This document shows positions 1 through 61,900 of a DNA stretch of 64,000 nt, one piece after another. The DNA is from Negaprion brevirostris (Eukaryota), in NCBI GenBank assembly GCA_030324005.1, contig JARDVH010000031.1, positions 53,735,314 to 53,799,313 on the forward strand. Reading direction: 5' to 3'. Below the pieces are notes generated by a model. It was not told the origin of the DNA. It made no database searches and saw only the letters and a list, made by a program, of their open reading frames with translations. A program made the position numbers and the translations under genes. Within the stretch, counting starts at the first letter, position 1. Every line of letters begins with the position of its first letter.

Positions 1-57
1 CAGACCTCCAATCAGAAAAAGACCCCTCCATTGCTACCGTTTGTCTTCTATGGCCAA
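1..57 (-). mobile_element. CR1 LINE RT fragment
   Basis: Reverse strand resembles the CR1 'RxQRVVVEG..S.W' segment and abuts a Penelope terminus remnant (59-81). Confidence 0.4.
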
Positions 58-1388
58 GTAAGGAGTCTCACAACACCAGGAACCTCAAGATGCTCAATTT
101 AAACAGAAGTATTAAGGAGAAAGAAACTTGAAATTGGTAGAACAAGACCCAAGAATGTGGGAGAGTGACAGTTGCTTGCAATTAACATTTTAAAGGAGAT
201 GCAGATGTAATCCTCATTCCCACTGAATTACTGTATGCTGAATAGTTAGAACCTTCATTTTGCTAATGGAGTATGGGAAATGCATTTATGATAAATTAAT
301 AAATACATCTTGTTTATGGATTGCAATTTAGGAGATTTTGTATACATTTGCTTTGGTATTTATGCTACCTTATCTGACTAAAGAAGGAAACCCTAAAAAA
401 ACAGAAACACAGAAGGTAATGTCACTATGTGACTACATTTCTTAGTAAACAAATTAGTAAGATTGAGAAAGAAGCCCGTGAAAATCAAAAGGTAGCCCTT
501 AAGAAATTCTCAAGAAAAACGCTTGAAAAAAGTAGTTTGGCTCTCTCGTAGATTGCAAAGGCTATCTACTCCCATGGCTTTTGCAGCACCTGTTTGCTGG
601 ACCTCCTGCTCCCTAGTGGATAGAGGACTTTGTTCCTCCTCTCTATCGATTGCACCTGAACCCCTAGTGTTGTTTCAGAGAAATTTGGAACATGCTGTCT
701 CCCCTTTTGCACCATGGACATGGTTCTTGCAGATCAGACATTCTTCTCCAGCCACTGCTGCAATATGAATATCATCCACTTTCAGCTTGGCTTTCAGTGG
801 CACTAGTCTCTCATAATTCTACACCTGCTATTCAGAGATGCAGGCATTCAGTAACCTGCTACACACTACGATGGTGGTAATGAGCAGGCAAGACGAAGTT
901 TGCTGCCTGTATTGGAAACAATAAAAAGGGGTTAATCACACATTGTAATCGGTTCATGTGCCTGTTTTGGCATCTTATCAAATCTTGTGGCCTGGACATT
1001 TCAGCAAATCACTGCATAAGGAAATACCTCATAACCTCTGTCCCAGTCTGTCAATTCATTGATCAGGGTTGAATTAATGGTGCCGATTCAAGTTGATTTT
1101 AGTGCCAGACTAGGAAAGGCAATTTCACCTGCGCTCCTAAACACATGTAGCAGATGACAACAGTCATGGTGGATTCCAATACCATGGTGTGCCCAGGAGC
1201 AAGGAGATCCTGCCTTGCTATATCATGTAGTATGTGGCAGTTTTAAATCTGTCTGCAGAAATCACACTCAGCTTGCGTCACCCAAACTAATTCAAAACAT
1301 AATGCCTTTGGTCTGTGAAAACTTGGGAACAGACCAGAAAAAGATTGCTTGCGGATTCCACAATTTTTGCACTGCGGTTTAACTCAGT

Positions 1389-1690
1389 ACAGTGGCGCAG
1401 TGGTTAGCAGTACTGCCTCACAGCTCTAGGGACCTAGGTTCGATTCCTGGCTTGGCTCACTCTCTGTGCGGAGTCTGCACATTCTCCCCATTTCTGTGTG
1501 GGTTTCCTCTGGGTGCTCCGGTTTCCTCCCACAGTCTGTAAGATGTGCTAGTTAGGTATATTGGCCAAGCTAAATACTCCCTCAGTGTACCCGAACAGAC
1601 ACAGGAGTGAGGCAACGAGGGGAATTTCACAGTAATTTCATTGCAGTGTTAATGTAAGCCTACTTGTGACACTAATAAATAAACTTTAAA
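1389..1690 (+). mobile_element. tRNA-derived V-SINE (tail type ...gtaagcctacttgtgacactaataaataaac)
   Basis: A-box GTGGCGCAGTGG, B-box GGTTCGATTCC, V-domain gggtttcctctgggtgctccggtttcctcccacagtc. Homologous copies at 36498-36800 and 41970-42212. Confidence 0.85.
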
Positions 1691-1837
1691 CTTTTGTTTT
1701 CTGGGATCTATTGGGAACCATTTGGTCAGCTATCTAGTTTGAATTTGGCCCTCTTCCAGTGTGAAGGACAGCTCACATGGTCATAATGTGAAGATGCTGG
1801 TGTTGGACTGGGGTAAACACAGTAAGAAGTCTCACAA

Positions 1838-1872
1838 CACTGATGAAGGAGCAATGCTCCGAAAGCTAGTGG
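1838..1872 (+). ncRNA. Minimal type I hammerhead ribozyme motif, copy 1
   Basis: CTGATGA-a-GGAGC-aat-GCTCC-GAAA-GC-TA: core boxes, 5-bp stem II, palindromic AGCT stem III and a CUA triplet. Confidence 0.7.
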
Positions 1873-1924
1873 CGTTTGCTGCCCAATAAACCTATTGGAC
1901 TTTAACCTGGTGTTGTGAGACTTC

Positions 1925-1960
1925 TCACCTGACGAAGGAGCAGTGCTCCGAAAGCTGTGG
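1925..1960 (+). ncRNA. Minimal type I hammerhead ribozyme motif, copy 2
   Basis: cac-CTGACGA-a-GGAGC-agt-GCTCC-GAAA-GCT-gtg. Core is intact but the H17 cleavage nucleotide appears missing. Confidence 0.65.
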
Positions 1961-2220
1961 GATTTTAACCTGGTGTTGTGAGACTTCTTACACATGCTCA
2001 AAGCCAGCTGTGAATGACTGGAAACTCTACACCATTCTGACAGTTGCCAGTGAAGGTCTGTGTAAAATATCAGGCGGAATCTTCCCAAATAAAATTGTGT
2101 CGTAAAAGTCTGAAAACCAGTGTGGAACACACTGGTCTTTCGCGTGAGCTCGGCACTGCAGTCTTCCCAAGGCTTGTCAGTTTTTCTGACAGCTGGGAAC
2201 TTTGTGCCAGTAGTGGGGCT

Positions 2221-2533
2221 GTAAGAAGCCTCACAACACCAGGTTAAAATCTAACAGGTTTGTTTTATTAGCATGAGCTTTTGGAGTGCTGCCCCTTCAT
2301 CGGGTGAGTGGAGGATTTGGTTCATAAACGGCATATATAGGCACAAACACAATTACACGATAATGGTTAGAATGCAAGTCTTTACAGGTACAGACATTGC
2401 GAGTAGAGAGAGGGTTAAATACGGATTAAAGAGGTGTGAAGTGTCTCAAGCCAGGACAGTTAGTGAGATTTTACAAGCCCAGACAAGTCGTGGGGGTTAC
2501 AGATAGTGTGACATGAACCCAAGATCCCGGTTG
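2221..2533 (-). mobile_element. Penelope-like element 3' end (GIY-YIG C-terminus plus pLTR)
   Basis: Minus strand encodes NRDLGFMSHYL*, followed by a pLTR with a degenerate hammerhead (CCGATGAAGGGGC-agc-ACTCC-AAAAGCTC) and the same terminus as 1822-1991. Confidence 0.8.
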
Positions 2534-3860
2534 ATGTCAAGAGGCCACTAGCTACATGGTACATACTTTTGCGATTTGGCCAATGCTGCAAGANNNNNNN
2601 NNNNNNNNNNNNNNNNNNNNNNNNNNNNNNNNNNNNNNNNNNNNNNNNNNNNNNNNNNNNNNNNNNNNNNNNNNNNNNNNNNNNNNNNNNNNNGAAATGA
2701 CATAGAATCTCAATTTACCTAGTTAAGTACCTTTCATCTGAAGCAAGCATATGTGCTGCTCTCACATTTACAGATGTGATTGAAAATTGCTTCATGTGTA
2801 TGTTGGGCACTGCTGATCAGCCAAGGTACCTTTTCCATTACTATCAACTGCTGGCTACCCATTATCCTGGCAAATTGATGCTGGTAATTTTGCGATCCTG
2901 AAGTTGAGGCATGAACATATGGCTCATGTTCAAAGATGAAATGTACGCAAACAATAATTATTGTGCCAGGTTCCATTTGTTGTACTAAGAAAATACTGCA
3001 TGTAATTTACGTAATTAATCAAAAATTAATTTGGCAATTCCTTCACCAGTTCTGATGTGTGATGAAACTAAAGGCAAGATTCTCTGACTTCAGTGTTTCT
3101 CTTGGCGCTCGTTCGCAGGTGGCGAGATTTTCTGAATGAGCCCACACCACCAGCAACTTTGGCACCTGGGGGCTGTACTCACCTGTGTGCCTCTGGCAGG
3201 GTCTGATTGGCAGGTGCACGTCATGGGGGAACCTGTTGTGATTCACGCCCATATGAAAGGACAATTAAACATGGAGAGGACTATCGGGTGTAAAGTCCTG
3301 ATATGCATAGTTTTATATATATATGCAAATATAGAACCCAACTTTTAAATCCAGGATTCCCGTTATGTTATTGACAGAGCGTGGGGACAAATGAGTGGGG
3401 ATATCCCATCAAAATCACGTAAAAGTTGTGCTGGGACTTCTCGATTTCCCTGCCCCACCCCCCTCCGCCTATGAAAATGAGAGCAGAAAATTCTCCCACT
3501 AACTTGAAGGCAAACATTTATGTATTAAATAAGGCGAATGTATTATTGTTGATCATTTCTAACTCAATGTGATTTTCAAAATGTTTTATGAATGCAGGAA
3601 CTTTACATTGGTATTTATGTGATCAATGTTTATCTAAACTGAGTAGTTAACTGTACTTGTAGGATTCAGAGCAGAATACCAACAGAATTGCTAACTTACT
3701 GATTCAAACTGTCCTCTGTGGTCTACGTGACAGATGTAGTTTACTATATTTAGTAACGTGTACAATACTGTGCCAGTTCAATGTTTCAGAAATATGACTG
3801 AAAAATACCATATAAAGGATATTTTAAAATATTTTACAATTTAAATATTTTAAATATTTT

Positions 3861-4270
3861 CCGGAATTGAGGGGGTTGAGCCGGAATTGAGGGGGTTGAG
3901 CTATGAGGAGAGGCTGAATAAACTGGGCTTGTATTCGTTAGAGTTTAGAAGGATGAGGGGAGATCTCATTGAGACGTATAAGATGATGAAAGGGATGGAT
4001 AGGGTAGAGGTNNNNNNNNNNNNNNNNNNNNNNNNNNNNNNNNNNNNNNNNNNNNNNNNNNNNNNNNNNNNNNNNNNNNNNNNNNNNNNNNNNNNNNNNN
4101 NNNNNNNNNNNTAGATAGGTTTTTGGTAGGCAAGGGGATTAAGGGTTATGGGGAGAAAGCGGGAAAGTGGAACTGAGCCACTTCAGATGAGCCATGATCT
4201 TATTGAATGGCGGGGCAGGCTCGAAGGGCTAGCTGGCCTACTGCTGCTCCTATTTCTTATGTTCTTATGT
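3861..4270 (+). mobile_element. CR1 LINE 3' end (gap inside)
   Basis: [29 protein letters not shown] is the CR1 ORF2 C-terminus. Tail ttcttatgttcttatgt; 20-bp tandem duplication at the 5' edge. Confidence 0.9.
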
Positions 4271-4399
4271 AATGTTCTTAATTGAGGATATAGAGAATAG
4301 CAAATAGTATTTAGAGTTTTGTTTGTTAAGATATGTATAGCTTTTGTAGCTACATATGTGTTAATAACATACCTTCTTTAATATTTTTATTCATTATAG

Positions 4400-4645
4400 A
4401 GATTATGGCTTATCCTACCTTTCTCTGAGAACCTGTATTGGACTTTGGACGGCTTTTCTTTGCATCGTTCTCGTTGCTACAGATGCAAGTTCACTGGTCT
4501 GCTACATCACCCGTTTCACTGAGGAAGCATTTGCTTCCCTTATTTGTCTTATTTTCATCTATGAGGCATTAGAAAAGCTGTATCACCTTGGTGAGACATA
4601 CCCATTCAATATGTATAATCACCTGGAACAGCTCACCCACTATTC
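4400..4645 (+). CDS. slc4a10: SLC4A10-like internal coding exon (TM3-TM5 region)
   Basis: ttcattatAG|a...tattc|GTAAGT, 246 nt, phase 2/2. Translates DYGLSYLSLRTCIGLWTAFLCIVLVATDASSLVCYITRFTEEAFASLICLIFIYEALEKLYHLGETYPFNMYNHLEQLTHYS, which includes the SLC4 hallmark ITRFTEEAF. Confidence 0.93.
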
Positions 4646-5039
4646 GTAAGTATATGAACAATTCCGCCTTAACAATAGAAATATAACATCATGGTGTTGT
4701 ATTGGAGATGGGGAATTTTCCCATTCCACCTGTTGTGGGAATCACAGTGGGTGTTGGGGGGTGGCCCATTTTAACTGGTGAAAAGAAATTAATAAATAAT
4801 CAGAGAAATCAACTTCCGGCGGTAATCTAACATAAATAATATTCTTTTTTAATTTATGACTGTTAAGCCATGTTGGGAAATAAATATGCTTATTTGCCTA
4901 GTTTATCAAACCAGACTATTCAGATTGATCGCTTTTTAATATCTTACTGACAGGAATCAATATAATCTAAAGGAAAGTTAGGTTGAATAACGAAACATTA
5001 TCCACTGCATGTTCAAAGCATACTACATTTCAAACTTTT

Positions 5040-5178
5040 CCCAGTTCTGATATGAGATCATCCACCCAAAATATTAGCCTGTTTCTCTCTCCACAGAGAC
5101 GGCCAGATCTGCTGTGTATTTTCAGCACTTTCTGTTTTTATTTTGGATCTCCAGCAGCTGCAGTTTTCTGCTTTTCAT
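5040..5178 (+). mobile_element. Second Penelope-type pLTR family, decayed
   Basis: ctgtttctctctccacag...ctgctgtgtattttcagcactttctgtttttatt...ccagca.ctgcagt. Related copies at 12280-12340 (-), 50298-50350 (-) and 50775-50877 (+). Confidence 0.5.
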
Positions 5179-5289
5179 TTACTAGAACTTGCCTCTCCAG
5201 CAAGCAGAAACAGCATAATCGAAGTAGATTCTATACAGGATATGTAATGATGACCAAAGGAGATAGTATAGTGCTGGCCACATTTCACT

Positions 5290-5580
5290 GTATGTTCTGA
5301 TGCAGTTCCTTGGGATCGAGGATGACTCGCATCTCCTCCAATTCGATGGATTCTGAAATGGCTGATGAGTCCAATGCACGATCTGCAGATTCTGCCACTG
5401 GTGGGGCAGGGAGTGCTTGAAGAGTTGGGGAGATGTGTTGTTGGAAGTTTGTACACTCCCTGTAATGTCTCAACTTCGCCTCTGCACATTCCTGACAATT
5501 GTGCTTAGTGTCTTCCTTGAATGAGTCTTCTCCATTTTGGTTGGTCACAAGCCATGGTCTCCTGTGAGTCGGTGAATATG
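5290..5580 (-). mobile_element. RTE-clade LINE 3' fragment
   Basis: CPTSGRICRSCIGLISHFRIH matches the C-terminal CxxC...HxxxH finger of RTE-type ORFs. Frameshifted. Confidence 0.7.
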
Positions 5581-7578
5581 AAAGAAGTTTACAGAAGGTG
5601 CCAATATACAGTGAAAGGCAAATTGTAAGAAAGCATGTAGGAGATTACAGCAGAATAGGTCAGTGGTGTGGACAGAAAGAAAGCAAATGCAGTTCTGTGC
5701 AGATAATTGGCAAGCACTATATTTTGGAAAAAGGAAATGTGGGAAAGAAAAATTGGTAGGGGATGTCCTGTGTCGATAGTCTTCTAATGGCTGACCAAAG
5801 TAAGTGTTGACACAGGCCTAGAAGTGGATCATCTACCTCTGTTAGCAGTAGAGACATATGTCAAAGTGCAGCTAACATAAAAAGACACAAGGTTGAATTA
5901 CATTTGCAGGAATACAACTGATTGTAAAAGGATTAATGAAAATTGTGTGTAAAATTAAATTGAAGCTGATGTGCCATTTTGCATACAGATATTTAGTCGC
6001 TTGGCATGAGTGGACCTAATTGTCATTAACAACGATGTAAAATTCTTCATAAAGTTATAATTTTCGGTACCACTGATATTAAAAATAGAATAACAGACTT
6101 TTGGTAACTCCGACTTGCAGGAGATACCCTGACTGTTTAATACAGTTGAAAATTCTGTGAAGTTGTTTTTGGACTTGCTGTTAGGAACAGGAAAGTGATT
6201 GAACCAAAGCAATTCAATTTATTTCTCCATATATCTCCTTGGCCCAATTGAGGCACTTAGGTGGCCACTTAAGGGCCTCATCCTGCTGCCACTGGGATTC
6301 AACAACTGCGGACAGGGAACTTGCCATCCAGGCTAGCAGACCACCAGTGGATTGTGGTCTCTTGGGCCAGGATATGGAAAGGAAACCAACTTCCTACCAT
6401 TGCTTTTGATCTTTCCTGCCCACTTTTACTGATGGCCCCTCCCTGCGGCCCCTGTCCAACCCACACTTATTGCTCTCCAGAAATCCATTAGCATCCTCTG
6501 GTGAAGACCCCATTATAGTCCTGGCAGTGACCACCGCTCCCAGGATGCTGCTGTACTGAAAAGTTGCTGGCCTCTAACTGACCAGCATCTCTTGAGTGTG
6601 AGGCCTCTGCCTTATTCAAACTGAATCTGAAAGGAGCTGCAATGCTATGCAATATGTACCTGACTGGAATGCAGTAGTGTCGGGCTTCCTGAAGAAAACA
6701 ATTAAAAATTCCCACTTGTTCTGCAACTGATGGATACAATCCTTGTCACCCATCTTGAATCCCAGCTCCCATGTACTTTTGTGCTGCCACATGAAGTAGA
6801 GCAGCAATGACCCGACTTCAGAGAAGCCCTTAATTGGCAAGCTGGGAAACCTGCACACACAGAAACAGAGAAGCCAGCCTCAATATGTATTCAAAATATC
6901 AGCTTATTTGTTAATGCAAAGAAAATGCTAGCCCCCTACCTGAGCAAAATTGCTGGCGGCAGGAACAGCAATGTTGAACTATTACGACAGCTGGCAACCC
7001 TCATTTTCAAGTCTGCCGGCCTCTGCAATTTCCCCAATTAGGCCTAAATTCTTGTCTTATGTTCTTCCCCTCGCCTGGCCAGCAAAACCCAGCTGTCCTG
7101 TTAACCACTTCCTTATTGCCACAATCCCCACCATTTCCCTGATTTTTGTGCTGACCCCACCAAACTCAGGGGCTTCCAACTGACGTGTAAGAGTTGTACT
7201 GGCAGCAGCAGTGGAAGACACAGTGATGCCCTATTTGAAGGCTATGATGGATACTTCTCCTTCCCTAGTGACTACTAAACCTCACTTTAGGTTTAGGTTT
7301 AGAGCGAAACTTGTGATAAAAGTTTTTCCACATATTCGGGGTTCTTTGACGCTTTGAATGCAGCTTCCTTATATAATGCTGCTTCTTCCTTTGCTGGCAT
7401 TGGTAGACTCTCTCTTAGTGTCATTAACACTGCTGGGAGTCTGCCATACAGAGTAAATGAGATGCAAAAGGGAAAAAAAAATAGATAAAACAACTTGGCA
7501 GTGTCAGAGCAGGAAATCATGCCCTGATTCTCTGAGAGCATATTAAGAAAAATCCAACTATTATCTCACAAAATCACA

Positions 7579-7931: not shown

Positions 7932-9766
7932 TTATCTGCAGCACATATGTAGTTATATGGCAGTGTGAGGTTGAGCAGGAGTGGGTGTCATGACGGGTCA
8001 GGAACTAGCCATGATACTGGGCTCTAATTTTTCTTTTGAAGGAGTGTGTCAGTGGATTAAATTTCTTCCTTTTATTGCTGAACATCTTGTTTTCCTTTTG
8101 GGTTTCCCACTTGTTGAAGATCATACCATACTTGGATCTCAGTAAGTGATGGAAATGAATACCTAGAATTGGCCAATGAGTTAACAGCATCATTAATTCA
8201 GAGCCGGAAACAGCTTGCAATTGGATGACACTGAAAAATTTTGTCATTGCCATTGCACTCCAGGTTGAGTCTTCTATTTTTTTTTAAAGAATTACATTCT
8301 CAACATATGGTAAGAACATATGAAATAGGAACAGGGGTTCACCATTTGATCCTTTGAGCCTGCTCCACCATTCAAATAGATGATTAATTTACAATCACAA
8401 CTCCACTTTCTTGCTGGAACCCCATGTCAGTTGATTTCCTTAGAATTTAAAAATAAGACTATAAGGTACAGGAGCGGAATTAGGCCACTTAGACATCAAT
8501 TCTACTCTGCCATTCAATCATGGCTGATGTGGCTCTCATCCCCATTCTCCTGCCTTTTCCCCATAACCCCTGATCCCCTTATTAATCAAGAACCTATGTT
8601 TTAAAGACACTCAATGACCTGGCCTCCACAGCCTTCTATGGCAAAGATTTCCACAGCTTCACCACTCTCTGGCTAAAGAAATTCCTCCTCACCTCTGTTT
8701 TAAAGGATCATCCCTTCAGCCTGAGGTTGCGCCCTGTGGTTCTAATTTTTCCTACTAGCGGAAACATCCTATCCAAGTCTACTCTACCCAGGCCTCGTAG
8801 TATGCTATAAGTTTCAATAAGATTCACCCTCATCCTCCTAAACTCCAATGAGTATGGACCCAAAGTCCTCAACCATTCCTCATATGACAAGCTCTTCATT
8901 CCAGGGATCATTCTTGTGAATCTCCTCTGGACCCTTTCCAAGGCCAGCNNNNNNNNNNNNNNNNNNNNNNNNNNNNNNNNNNNNNNNNNNNNNNNNNNNN
9001 NNNNNNNNNNNNNNNNNNNNNNNNNNNNNNNNNNNNNNNNNNNNNNNNNNNNNNNNNNNNNNNNNNNNNNNNNNNNNNNNNNNNNNNNNNNNNNNNNNNN
9101 NNNNNNNNNNNNNNNNNNNNNNNNNNNNNNNNNNNNNNNNNNNNNNNNNNNTTTGTGTGATTTCCCTTGATCTCCTAAGGATTTTCCCATTTAGAAAATA
9201 GTCTATGCCTCCATTCTTCCTTCCAAAGTGCATAACCCCAGACTTTTCCACATTGTATTCCATTTGCCACTTCTTTGCCCACTCTCCTAACCAGTCAAAG
9301 TCCTTCTGCAGCTCCCCTGCTTCCTCAATACTATCTGTCCCTCTACATATCTTTGTATCATCTGCAAGCTTAGCAACAGTGCCTTTAGTTCCTTCTTCCA
9401 AATCGTTAATGTATATTGTGAAAAGTTGTGGTCCCAGCACCAACCCCTGAGGCACACGATTAGTCATCAGCTGCCATCCTGAATAAGACCCCTTTATCCC
9501 CACTCTCTGCCGTCTGCCAGTCAGCCAATCCTCTATCCATGCCAGGATCTTACCATTAACACAATGGGCTCTTAACTTATTTAACAGTCTCCCATGCAGC
9601 ACCTTGTCAAAAGCCTTTTGGAAATCTAAATAAATTATGCCTACTGGTTCTCCTTTATCTAACTTCCTTGTNNNNNNNNNNNNNNNNNNNNNNNNNNNNN
9701 NNNNNNNNNNNNNNNNNNNNNNNNNNNNNNNNNNNNNNNNNNNNNNNNNNNNNNNNNNNNNNNNNA

Positions 9767-9960
9767 AGATGTGTATTGTTTCCAGACAGAAAAGTTAGTG
9801 AGATTTTGCAAGTCCAGGCAAGTTGTGGGGGTTACAGATAGTGTGACATGAATCCAAGATCCCGGTTGAGGCCATCCCCACGTGTGCAGAACTTGACTAT
9901 CAGTCTCCGCTCAGCCACTCTGCGCTGTCGTGTTTCATGAAGGCCACTTTGGAGAATGCT
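9767..9960 (-). mobile_element. Penelope GIY-YIG fragment inserted in the CR1
   Basis: SILQSGLHETRQRRVAERRLIVKFCTRGDGLNRDLGFMSHYL*, with high similarity to 2455-2533. Confidence 0.8.
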
Positions 9961-39756: not shown

Positions 39757-40000
39757 GAACATTTCCTGAAGATTGGACGGTAGCAAATGTAATTCTGCTA
39801 TTTAAGAAAGGAGGCAGAGAAAGAAAATGAGGAACTTACAGATCTGTTAGACTGACATTGGTTGTTGGAACATACTAGAATCAATTATAAAGGGTGTGCT
39901 AATTAGACTTTTCAAAAATAATGGTAGGACTGGGTTGAATCAATATGGACTTATGAAAGGGAAATCATGTTTGATAAACCTGGTGGACTTTTTTGAGGAT
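39757..40000 (+). mobile_element. CR1 RT fragment
   Basis: FPEDWTVANVILLFKKGGRE...QYGLMKGKSCLINLVDFFED. Confidence 0.8.
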
Positions 40001-58949: not shown

Positions 58950-61900
58950 CAGTCTATATACATGACACTGCACTACTCAATGTAATGAGAACCACTCCTA
59001 TGTACAAATGAACTAGGAATGGGAGGCAAAGAAGTTATGAATCATGAAGGAGATTATCATGCAGTTACGCTGCTTCTATCATGGCCTGGAGCCTCAAACC
59101 AGGGCAAGGGTGATCCTCCTATTAGTTTTGAAGGTTACCATCGCACTTACATTCTAGGCCAAGTGATCCTTCCAGGTAGAAACATCTGACACCAGCATAT
59201 TACAGTTTGCCTAATATTGAAAGGCCAAGGAGCTGACATGATTACAGAAAAAAATGGACTTCATCCTCTTCTCTTTGAGTAGGGAATACCAGTAAGTAAG
59301 TCCAGGTGAGTTTGCAGGAATAACTAGGTTCAGGGTGCCATTGACTGCAAGTCGCTCTGCATCTCCATGTCAATGGATTGCAATTTTACAAATACCAGGG
59401 CTACAACTCTGAAAGCATAGTTTGTGTGTGATCACACCAAGAAGTTCATCTCAGTGAATGCCTGTAGCCATCTTGGCAGCACCCCTAATACTTTTATCCT
59501 GCAGAATATAAGGATAGCAGTTTGGTGACAAGGGCTACCTCTACCACACATGGCTATTTTTCACTTCCAACAACGCAAAGTCCAATTGAGCCACCCTCAA
59601 CACTCAGGAGCAAGCCATTGGTCTTGTAAAGGAAAGAGTTTGCAGCTTAGATCACTCAAGGGATCACTTTGGTATTTACACGCCCAAGATACTGTCCATG
59701 TTTTTGATGGTGTACTGCATCCACTACAATCTTGTAATACTGACGGCTCTGTCACTATCTTCTGGGGTCTGGAGACCATCCTTGGAAAGAGGAGAAGGTT
59801 ACATTCGCCATGTGCAACTGGGTAAAGTAAGGTGGGGGCCACATTGTGAGGATCCACTTCCACTCCAACCCCAACATGGATCCAAACAAAACATTCATAC
59901 TCCATCGCAAAGTTCCCTTGGGCAACATCATTCAATAAAGGCTAATAGTGAAAACCTTCACTCAACAACTTCAGCCAGTAACACATGAATAGAGCAAAAA
60001 AAACCCTAGCCATAATCACCCTATGTATCCCTCTAATGCCTATCTTGCAGGTGCCCATGCTGGACTCTTAAGCCATGCTAACACAATGGCTGCAGTATGG
60101 CTGTGTTACGCAGTTGACCTTCCCTTGGAGAGAATGCCAATGGCCTCACAGGACATCCTAGAGCGGCATTGGACCATGAAGACCTGGTGTTGGACTGCAC
60201 TGTCTCAGTTTAGGTGGCAGCATTCTGGGCTGGCTGGTTGAGAGGCAACAGCAAAAGAATTGGCAGTGTTGTCAGTGCTGAGAGCAGAAATGAGAGAGGT
60301 TAGCAAATTTGTGCTCGATGGTACCTCTGCCGTTCCACCAGTGCAGTACGTTAGCAATCCTGCTGGAGCACTGTTGCCAGACTTTGAGCAGTTTGATCCA
60401 TAGTCATGATTGCAGCTGTGTCTCTGGATGTCCTTGAACTTTTACTGTAGCACTGAGAGATACAATGATTTTGCCTGTACTGCATTTGAAGATGAGATAA
60501 TGGCCAGCAGATGCTCCAGATGCTTGGGTGGGTTGAGTAGTGCTATCACTGAGGTTCCTACCACTTCAACAGTGGGAAGTATGCCTTGTGCCATGGCTGT
60601 GGGTCTAGCAATGCATTAGTCATTGCGGTATGTATCCTGATCAAAATTTTTATATAATCCACTCCATCTGAGTTTCCTGTTGCAAAACCCAGTTGCTCCC
60701 TCATCTTCTAGGGGGATTTGTACCTGAGCTGACCTATCTTGCTGTCCTAGCTTCAGCCCAGTGTCTCAGCATGGTTTGTCTCCAGCCCTATCTTAGCCTC
60801 TGAGGTATGCAGAGTGCCAGCACCTGCGCTGCATGTTTGGTTAAGTGTCAATGCCTCTACCTGAGAGGTCCATTGTTGCTCTTAACACTTCCTCATTAAG
60901 TTCTGTTATATGGACAGTTAGAAATTCCTTACTATCTGAAAGCTCAGACACATAAGGGGATATTAGGTGTGAGGCAAGGATGGGTGGGGAAGAAAACAGG
61001 AGGTTCATGGTGCTTCCATGTGCATTTCCATTTCATTTCACATTTCAAAATGAAGAACAAAGAACAACCCAGCACGGGAAACAGGCCCTTTGGCCCAACG
61101 AGCCCACGCCGCCATTTCAGCAAAGCATTTTCCTACACCTACCCTGCCCCGTGTGTATGTGAATGGTACCCCTAATGTAGCCAGANNNNNNNNNNNNNNN
61201 NNNNNNNNNNNNNNNNNNNNNNNNNNNNNNNNNNNNNNNNNNNNNNNNNNNNNNNNNNNNNNNNNNNNNNNNNNNNNNNNNNNNNCAGATTCGTAAGGCA
61301 AGACCTCCCCTGAACAAAGCCATGTTGCGTATCCCTAATCAGATTGCAACGCTCCAAATGCTTATACATCCTATCCCTAAGAATTTTTTCCAATAATTTT
61401 CCTACTACCAATGTCAAACTCACTGGTCTATAATTACCAGGGTTATCCCCACTGCCCTTTTTAAACAGTGGTATCACATTAGCTATCGTCCAGTCCTCTG
61501 GGACCTCTCCTGTGTCTAAAGAAGAGACAAAGATTTGTGTCAGAGGCCCAGCAATTTCATCTTTCACCTCCCTAAGCAAGGTGGGGAGTGAGTGCAGAAG
61601 GCCCATGAGGAAACAACTTGCCATTATCTTTGGCAGCGCCAGGTGCCACTGGTTGTTTGGCATTGGTCCAAATAATTCTGTGCACCACCTCCTTCACAGC
61701 TCTGAGAGGATTCAGGTGTACCAGTGCTCTTATTGTCCTGGGAGGGTTTCCTCCTGTTGTGGGCCACTTCTCCTGCAATTGAAGGGACACCATCCATGAG
61801 TCCTTGGATGATATACTGCCATAGGTGAACAGCCATACATTTGTCGAGACACATAGAGGAGCGTGTGCAGTTGTCGTTATGGAGGGCATGTTTGTGGATG

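Follow-up and report, generated by a model that had tools for sequence, protein, structure and literature searches.

A decayed Penelope-like insertion upstream of an SLC4A10 exon in Negaprion brevirostris retains one formally intact hammerhead site that is predicted to be folded shut

We analysed a 64,000-nt stretch of the Negaprion brevirostris genome (contig JARDVH010000031.1), referred to here as the window, in which two hammerhead-like cores lie upstream of coding exons of slc4a10. Comparison with cartilaginous-fish SLC4A10 by tblastn gave 12 HSPs on the + strand running from 4398 to 51677, which bore out the sense orientation of the cores to slc4a10 claimed in a preliminary description of this DNA. 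The next coding exon downstream of the cores showed 90% identity to cartilaginous-fish sodium-driven chloride bicarbonate exchanger proteins. A PDB search with this single exon had pointed to SLC4A7 (138.7 vs 132.1 bits), an assignment that was overturned by the multi-exon comparison, in which the summed scores were 1077 bits for SLC4A10 and 831 for bird SLC4A7. The preceding exon was not found in the window and lies outside it, so that we infer the intronic position of the cores. Fourteen N gaps occur in the window, and two of 100 N separate the cores from the exon; an earlier figure of about 2.5 kb upstream of a coding exon was therefore right as to the order and approximate as to the distance.

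Both cores are contained in one Penelope-like (PLE) insertion of ~205 nt, at about 1785-1991 (Table 1). All the features of an EN+ PLE insertion were present, namely an inverted, 5'-truncated copy (1787-1840), a partial tandem, a 35-nt tail and a short target-site duplication (TSD) with 8/9 identity. The duplication reaches 9/10 if a flanking C is included, and its last bases overlap the inverted tail, hence a length of 7-10 bp; among the three public DNA runs that we searched (X1-X3), X2 and X3 have T at 2001, lengthening the duplication match by one base. The element had been described as starting at 1822, a position that moved to near 1782-1787 once the tail was included. In each of X1-X3, the match of 752-1022 family contigs breaks off before 1786 in a loose end. 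The reading frame of the tail matches the N-terminal part of P0126 (14/18 aa), a protein from a different locus in which this stretch continues in frame into a PLE C-terminus, and the inverted terminus is joined to the hammerhead with other gaps at other loci (six contig records; P0126).

This anatomy, with a tail at one end, microhomology junctions and a deletion, resembles that of typical EN+ PLE insertions as described in PMC8557442, PMC3846280 and PMC11167929, from which it differs in that no ORF remains. According to PMC8557442, PLE insertions show 5' truncation, a partial tandem, an adjacent inverted copy and a 30-40 bp tail; PMC3846280 reports TSDs of 8-10 bp and microhomology deletions, and in PMC11167929 the tail is located between two RT start points and uncut RNA is the dominant PLE template. 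The present insertion could have arisen in the same manner. The PLE enzyme would nick the intron and copy pLTR RNA in short rounds, beginning at two internal start points, the tail end and the terminus. Two joints would then have formed at short microhomologies, one at C3 between the inverted piece and unit 1, the other three to five bases upstream of C3 between units 1 and 2. Each unit extends past the cleavage site, so the template would have been uncut RNA. Unit 2 would subsequently have lost 26 nt, and the insertion would have decayed through point mutation. By event count, the loss in unit 2 is explained equally well by a single 26-nt deletion with one substitution or by two deletions, of which one removed H17 and the other a separate stretch. 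A partial tandem formed at insertion was preferred to a later local duplication giving rise to unit 2 from unit 1, since the latter needs an extra substitution and is less parsimonious.

Table 1. Positions of the insertion, its parts and neighbouring features in the 64,000-nt window
Feature	Position	Strand	Content or basis
Target-site duplication, left copy, diverged	1775..1783	+	8/9 identical to 1992-2000
Inverted PLE tail, 35 nt, may reach 1782	1787..1821	-	
Inverted pLTR terminus	1822..1840	-	Pairs with 1973-1991 (19/19) or 1910-1928 (18/19)
Native stem I 5' arm of unit 1	Lost at inversion junction		Alignment
pLTR unit 1, 89 nt	1840..1928	+	Core 1 (1840-1864), substrate strand, spacer, terminus
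Substrate strand AGCU-A-GUGG of formally intact site	1864..1872	+	Predicted scissile bond after A1868
Enzyme strand of intact site	1925..1956	+	UCAC arm, core 2, stem II, GAAAGCU
pLTR unit 2, 63 nt	1929..1991	+	Core 2, then 26-nt deletion removing H17
Target-site duplication, right copy	1992..2000	+	Sequence
Separate 5'-truncated PLE copy 3	2221..~2535	-	Last PLE ORF codons, pLTR, damaged hammerhead, terminus
Next SLC4A10 coding exon	4398..4643	+	Protein comparison
SLC4A10 3'-half exons (approximate)	4398, 12746, 18582, 21157, 24529, 26029, 29283, 38492, 39056, 43084, 44196, 51615		tblastn

Direct reading of the sequence placed core 1 at CUGAUGA 1840-1846, stem II 1848-1860, GAAA 1861-1864 and AGCU 1864-1867, with the triplet CUA (1866-1868) and then GUGG (1869-1872) downstream, and core 2 at CUGACGA 1929-1935, stem II 1937-1949, GAAA 1950-1953 and AGCU 1953-1956, with the UCAC arm (1925-1928) directly 5' of it. 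The two cores lie 89 nt apart and are identical at 26/28 bases. In each of them one A is common to GAAA and the AGCU palindrome, a base is bulged (A1847, A1936) and stem II consists of 5 bp closed by G-C (G1848-C1860, G1937-C1949). The spacing and palindromes of the cores, the CUA cleavage triplet of copy 1, the UCAC arm of copy 2 and the setting of PLE-type minimal hammerheads in a pLTR with an inverted terminus, here a perfect 19-bp inverted repeat (1822-1840/1973-1991), all agreed with the preliminary description. A covariance check that it had proposed came back empty, Rfam hammerhead models giving no match at E up to 10 in 1-6000 and 1780-2330, as expected of so minimal a motif. When a generic descriptor (CUGANGA, optional bulge, stem of at least 4 pairs, GAAA) was applied to the whole window, it matched at 4 places, both cores and two loose ones, compared with a mean of 0.31 matches in 100 Markov simulations (0.11 for stems of at least 5 pairs, and 0/100 with two such). 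The core pair exceeds chance expectation. The loose core-like matches, at 39766 and 54092, have long loops and lack the AGCU palindrome, and are within chance. Exact-pattern scans of viral contigs and metagenome contigs gave no match.

The core of minimal hammerhead ribozymes (min-HHRs), CUGANGA...GAAA around stem II, is present in both units, as is a palindromic 15.2-16.2 segment without a stem III loop (1864-1867 and 1953-1956). With these core boxes, palindromes, the extra base between 9 and 10.1, G10.1-C11.1, a 4-bp stem I and a location in a pLTR, and as dispersed, high-copy, truncated relics, the motifs are like the metazoan PLE min-HHRs described by Cervera and de la Pena 2014 (PMC4209133), an account in which min-HHRs are widespread and mostly single truncated relics. 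They are unlike them in that neither unit is complete alone, and stem II has 5 bp here as against 7-8 bp in the schistosome families of the same account; the vertebrates that it names for PLE min-HHRs do not appear to include sharks.

A stem I of 4-5 bp with an NUH triplet is absent from each single unit and occurs only in the hybrid of core 2 with the substrate strand of copy 1. Constrained folding of this hybrid gave a nested hammerhead with 13/13 pairs valid and all core bases present. Next to core 2 itself, UCUCAC 1923-1928 can pair with GUGGGA 1957-1962 in a 6-bp stem I that has no cleavage site. In both units the 5' truncation falls no more than about five bases from C3 (1840; 1925-1929). 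The pLTR terminus is similar to the 5' arm of stem I, and stem I is therefore rebuilt when units join head to tail at C3. The 5' arm of copy 1, described earlier as one C short, is not a native arm at all; it is the inverted terminus joined at C3. Copy 2 does lack H17, as had been noted, and alignment showed the loss to be larger, with 26 nt missing from unit 2 relative to its alignment partners. Of the two sites of a standard double hammerhead, the one made by core 1 carries both lesions and that of core 2 is formally whole; the hybrid is this surviving half, a default left-over rather than a special complementation. The idea that the two copies carry complementary defects thus lost its force, as two lesions have even odds of falling on the same one of two sites. 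A dimer model of hammerheads is outlined in PMC6765202, and the newt and viroid double hammerhead (Forster et al. 1988, via PMC4209133 and PMC6765202) likewise has cores that share a palindromic stem III; there each core cuts the substrate strand of the other copy, whereas only one site remains here.

The identity of the element was approached through its relatives in and beyond the window. A separate minus-strand copy (copy 3; 2221-~2535), absent from the preliminary description, aligns with units 1 and 2, and its part 2221-2310 is antisense to both of them in the pre-mRNA. The copy 3 hammerhead is damaged by core changes at U4 and in GAAA. tblastn with P0126 matched copy 3 at 2500-2535 (10/12 aa), and copy 3 is 87% identical to 9767-9869 over 103 nt. 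An ORF-end piece at 9835-9957 with a 41-aa frame matches 26 proteins, which include the 881-aa RT protein P0135 (RVT_1, E 3.8e-10) and P0127, with a GIY-YIG hit at E 0.0017 that is below the curated cutoff; P0125 and P0138 were discounted as repeat-driven chance matches. Judged by sequence, the host element is an RT + GIY-YIG PLE with the hammerheads in its pLTR. It is likely Neptune-like, an assignment whose sole basis is a cysteine motif that the related protein P0135 has in its RT-EN linker; the Poseidon clade was dropped in favour of it on the same linker cysteines. The fragment at 9770-9960 (minus strand), with 41 codons free of stops before its end, sits in a decayed LINE-type RT remnant (RVT_1 8880-9794) and adjoins an N gap, and its hammerhead, if any, falls outside the assembly.

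The PLE family is extremely abundant in X1-X3, where the summed depth at 1890-1914 was 3.3-6.4 million compared with 7-18 over the unique flank 2015-2064, a ratio that is not a copy number. A second subfamily (loose ends before 1885), of which copy 3 appears to be a member, has C at H17 and GUGA as the stem I 3' arm. GUGA is fully complementary to UCAC, so stem I is supported at the level of the family. A literature search for Penelope, shark and hammerhead ribozyme together found one review only, and the shark hammerhead family may not have been described by name in the literature searched. At the locus itself, contigs of X2 and X3, labelled other organisms, differ from the window at 7/282 and 10/284 bases, and their unique flank continues into the insertion at either end for 24-30 letters. 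This overlap is just below our bridge rule of 31 letters, so that these sequences make common ancestry of the insertion with the X2 and X3 organisms likely, short of strict proof. Compared with the window, X2 and X3 also have 15 extra bases at 1734, within the unique flank.

We then considered how the surviving site is predicted to fold in its context, bearing in mind that nearest-neighbour folding ignores Mg2+ core contacts and chaperones and cannot alone separate active from dead min-HHRs. The penalty of the hybrid above the ensemble was 10.0 kcal/mol for 1860-1960 and 12.7 for 1822-1991, a fold in which stem III had a probability of about 0.01 and stem I of about 0.0002. As the 3' end of the transcript was moved, the penalty was 25-27 kcal/mol at 1956-1968, ~12.7 kcal/mol from 1986 to 2230 and 36.6-38.0 kcal/mol at 2310-2400. 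An idealised undamaged tandem cost 8.3 and 10.8 kcal/mol per site and 16.5 for both, and since this is only 2-4 kcal/mol less, the penalty of 12.7 kcal/mol is weak evidence alone. Stems I and III together gave no net gain over stem II alone (-6.9 vs -7.2 kcal/mol), and shuffled linkers were as good as the native one or better in 153, 168 and 163 of 200 cases. The fold z-score of 1815-2000 was -6.3. The predicted blockers were the 1822-1840/1910-1928 trap, a hairpin at 1862-1900, cross-pairing between the stem II's, and antisense copy 3, whose duplexes with units 1 and 2 are worth about -100 to -106 kcal/mol and add about 25 kcal/mol to the cost of the hybrid. In these models the inverted-terminus trap and the pairing with copy 3 are stronger evidence than the penalty of 10-14 kcal/mol.

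During transcription, the inverted terminus would hold the UCAC arm while Pol II is at 1910-1985. The outer hairpin would release this arm for a few seconds, over the ~245 nt from ~1986 to 2230, with the two stem II's cross-paired and the substrate strand sequestered in a hairpin, and after 2250-2310 antisense copy 3 would pair with core 2 or core 1 in a long duplex. A fold of 1822-1991 dominated by the outer hairpin, with no stem III, had been named in advance as speaking against the ribozyme, and this is the outcome predicted, in that the outer hairpin forms and stem III barely does, although the hairpin itself is predicted to be permissive. As for selection, among the differences listed, 0/8 sites where the family majority differs (above 50%, in X1 only) fall in the 36 positions of 205 that the hybrid needs (P=0.21), a pattern that leans slightly towards preservation and gives no significant sign of selection.

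We consider it likely that the insertion is a decayed and inert PLE relic, with a surviving site that is predicted to be folded shut, and that it does not cut slc4a10 pre-mRNA. The proposal that a complete ribozyme is rebuilt and cuts the intron thus stood as a drawing, with its 13 valid pairs, and found no support as to cutting. That a trimmed construct might cleave weakly at high Mg2+ is a real possibility, well short of probable. Published activity is in keeping with this picture: in PMC4209133 min-HHR monomers are inactive and dimers cleave weakly, mostly at non-physiological Mg2+, among Xenopus dimers predicted to be intact 1/9 cleaved in bioRxiv 10.64898/2026.07.22.740005, and in PMC11167929 the anole PLE hammerhead requires PLE protein and had no RNA-seq ends at its site.

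The closest competitor to an inert relic is a site that folds transiently, maybe with PLE protein or a chaperone of the host to assist it, so that the nascent intron is slowly cleaved after 1868; we consider this very unlikely. It would draw on the intact 13 pairs and core bases, on the freedom of the 36 needed positions from family-majority differences, on a penalty at 1986-2230 near that of an undamaged tandem, and on the anole PLE hammerhead, which in PMC11167929 is assisted by protein. Against these points, the window of ~245 nt lasts roughly 4 s at 3.8 kb/min (the rate given in PMC2995048), antisense copy 3 would add its 25 kcal/mol, stems I and III bring no net gain over stem II, the published activity just cited is low, and a slow intronic hammerhead cut is reported in PMC2995048 to be compatible with splicing, while a fast HDV cut is not. 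A more elaborate form of transient cutting, in which a one-site double hammerhead would fold only in the ~245-nt window and, with PLE protein or a chaperone, cut some nascent transcripts in related sharks that share the insertion, has in our estimate a very slim chance; the outer hairpin would then act as an on-switch and the neighbouring antisense copy as an off-switch, as parts of that same joint and improbable claim.

Two further explanations, each quite improbable in our view, leave cutting aside. The junction of units 1 and 2 and the 26-nt deletion could be artefacts produced when a high-copy repeat was assembled from short reads, as might be suspected from the N gaps, from the lack of a contig spanning both cores at this locus among those listed for X1-X3, and from the trouble that tandem and inverted PLE structures cause in short-read assemblies (PMC8557442). 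Such an artefact fits poorly with an insertion of only ~205 nt with its TSD, with units that differ at 2/28 and 4/35 aligned bases, and with outer junctions that both adjoin unique flank in the runs of other organisms. Alternatively, double-stranded RNA rather than catalysis may matter, the intronic duplex being edited or affecting splicing, or the 89-nt unit may be an early, failed non-LTR retrozyme. The strength of the copy 3 duplexes and the z-score would suit this, as would a terminus that mimics the stem I arm and a C3 head-to-tail join that restores stem I; in bioRxiv 2026.07.22.740005 retrozymes derive from pLTR tandems and are present in the sole chondrichthyan sampled. Like these retrozymes, the insertion has units derived from a pLTR, arranged head to tail and each bearing a hammerhead core. 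It is unlike the active ones, which that source defines by at least 2 consecutive complete hammerhead units, as it has two units only, one lacking part of its length and neither complete. Its flanks are an inverted tail and a TSD, as in a single PLE insertion, and the joint from 1928 to 1840 is absent among the 15 of 1031 joints listed. Inverted pairs, for their part, are expected wherever an abundant repeat inserts both ways.

An inert relic has little import beyond being another decayed copy of a known retroelement ribozyme, although it illustrates neatly how PLE insertions are built and indicates that a pLTR terminus can replace the stem I arm in head-to-tail joins. Cutting by the surviving site in vivo, were it to occur, would make it a rare example of a minimal PLE hammerhead that acts on host pre-mRNA. 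Relics of this kind are very numerous in shark introns, and an active site would offer a natural test of whether they burden splicing. In its sense orientation and its presumed place in an intron of a neuronal-type gene it is like the exapted intronic ribozymes covered by PMC6765202 (CPEB3 HDV-like, amniote intronic hammerheads), which are single-copy and conserved, unlike this decaying member of a huge repeat family.

Other repeats were seen in the window. The pLTR terminus recurs as a 23-nt antisense fragment at 58-80, 1.76 kb upstream of the insertion. ARAGORN found no tRNA in 1-6000. A further RVT_1 fragment occupies 61172-61693 on the minus strand. An abundant repeat at ~1390-1690, which we take to be SINE-like, ends just left of the insertion; its depth reaches the millions over 1640-1689, and contigs have loose ends at 1683-1694.
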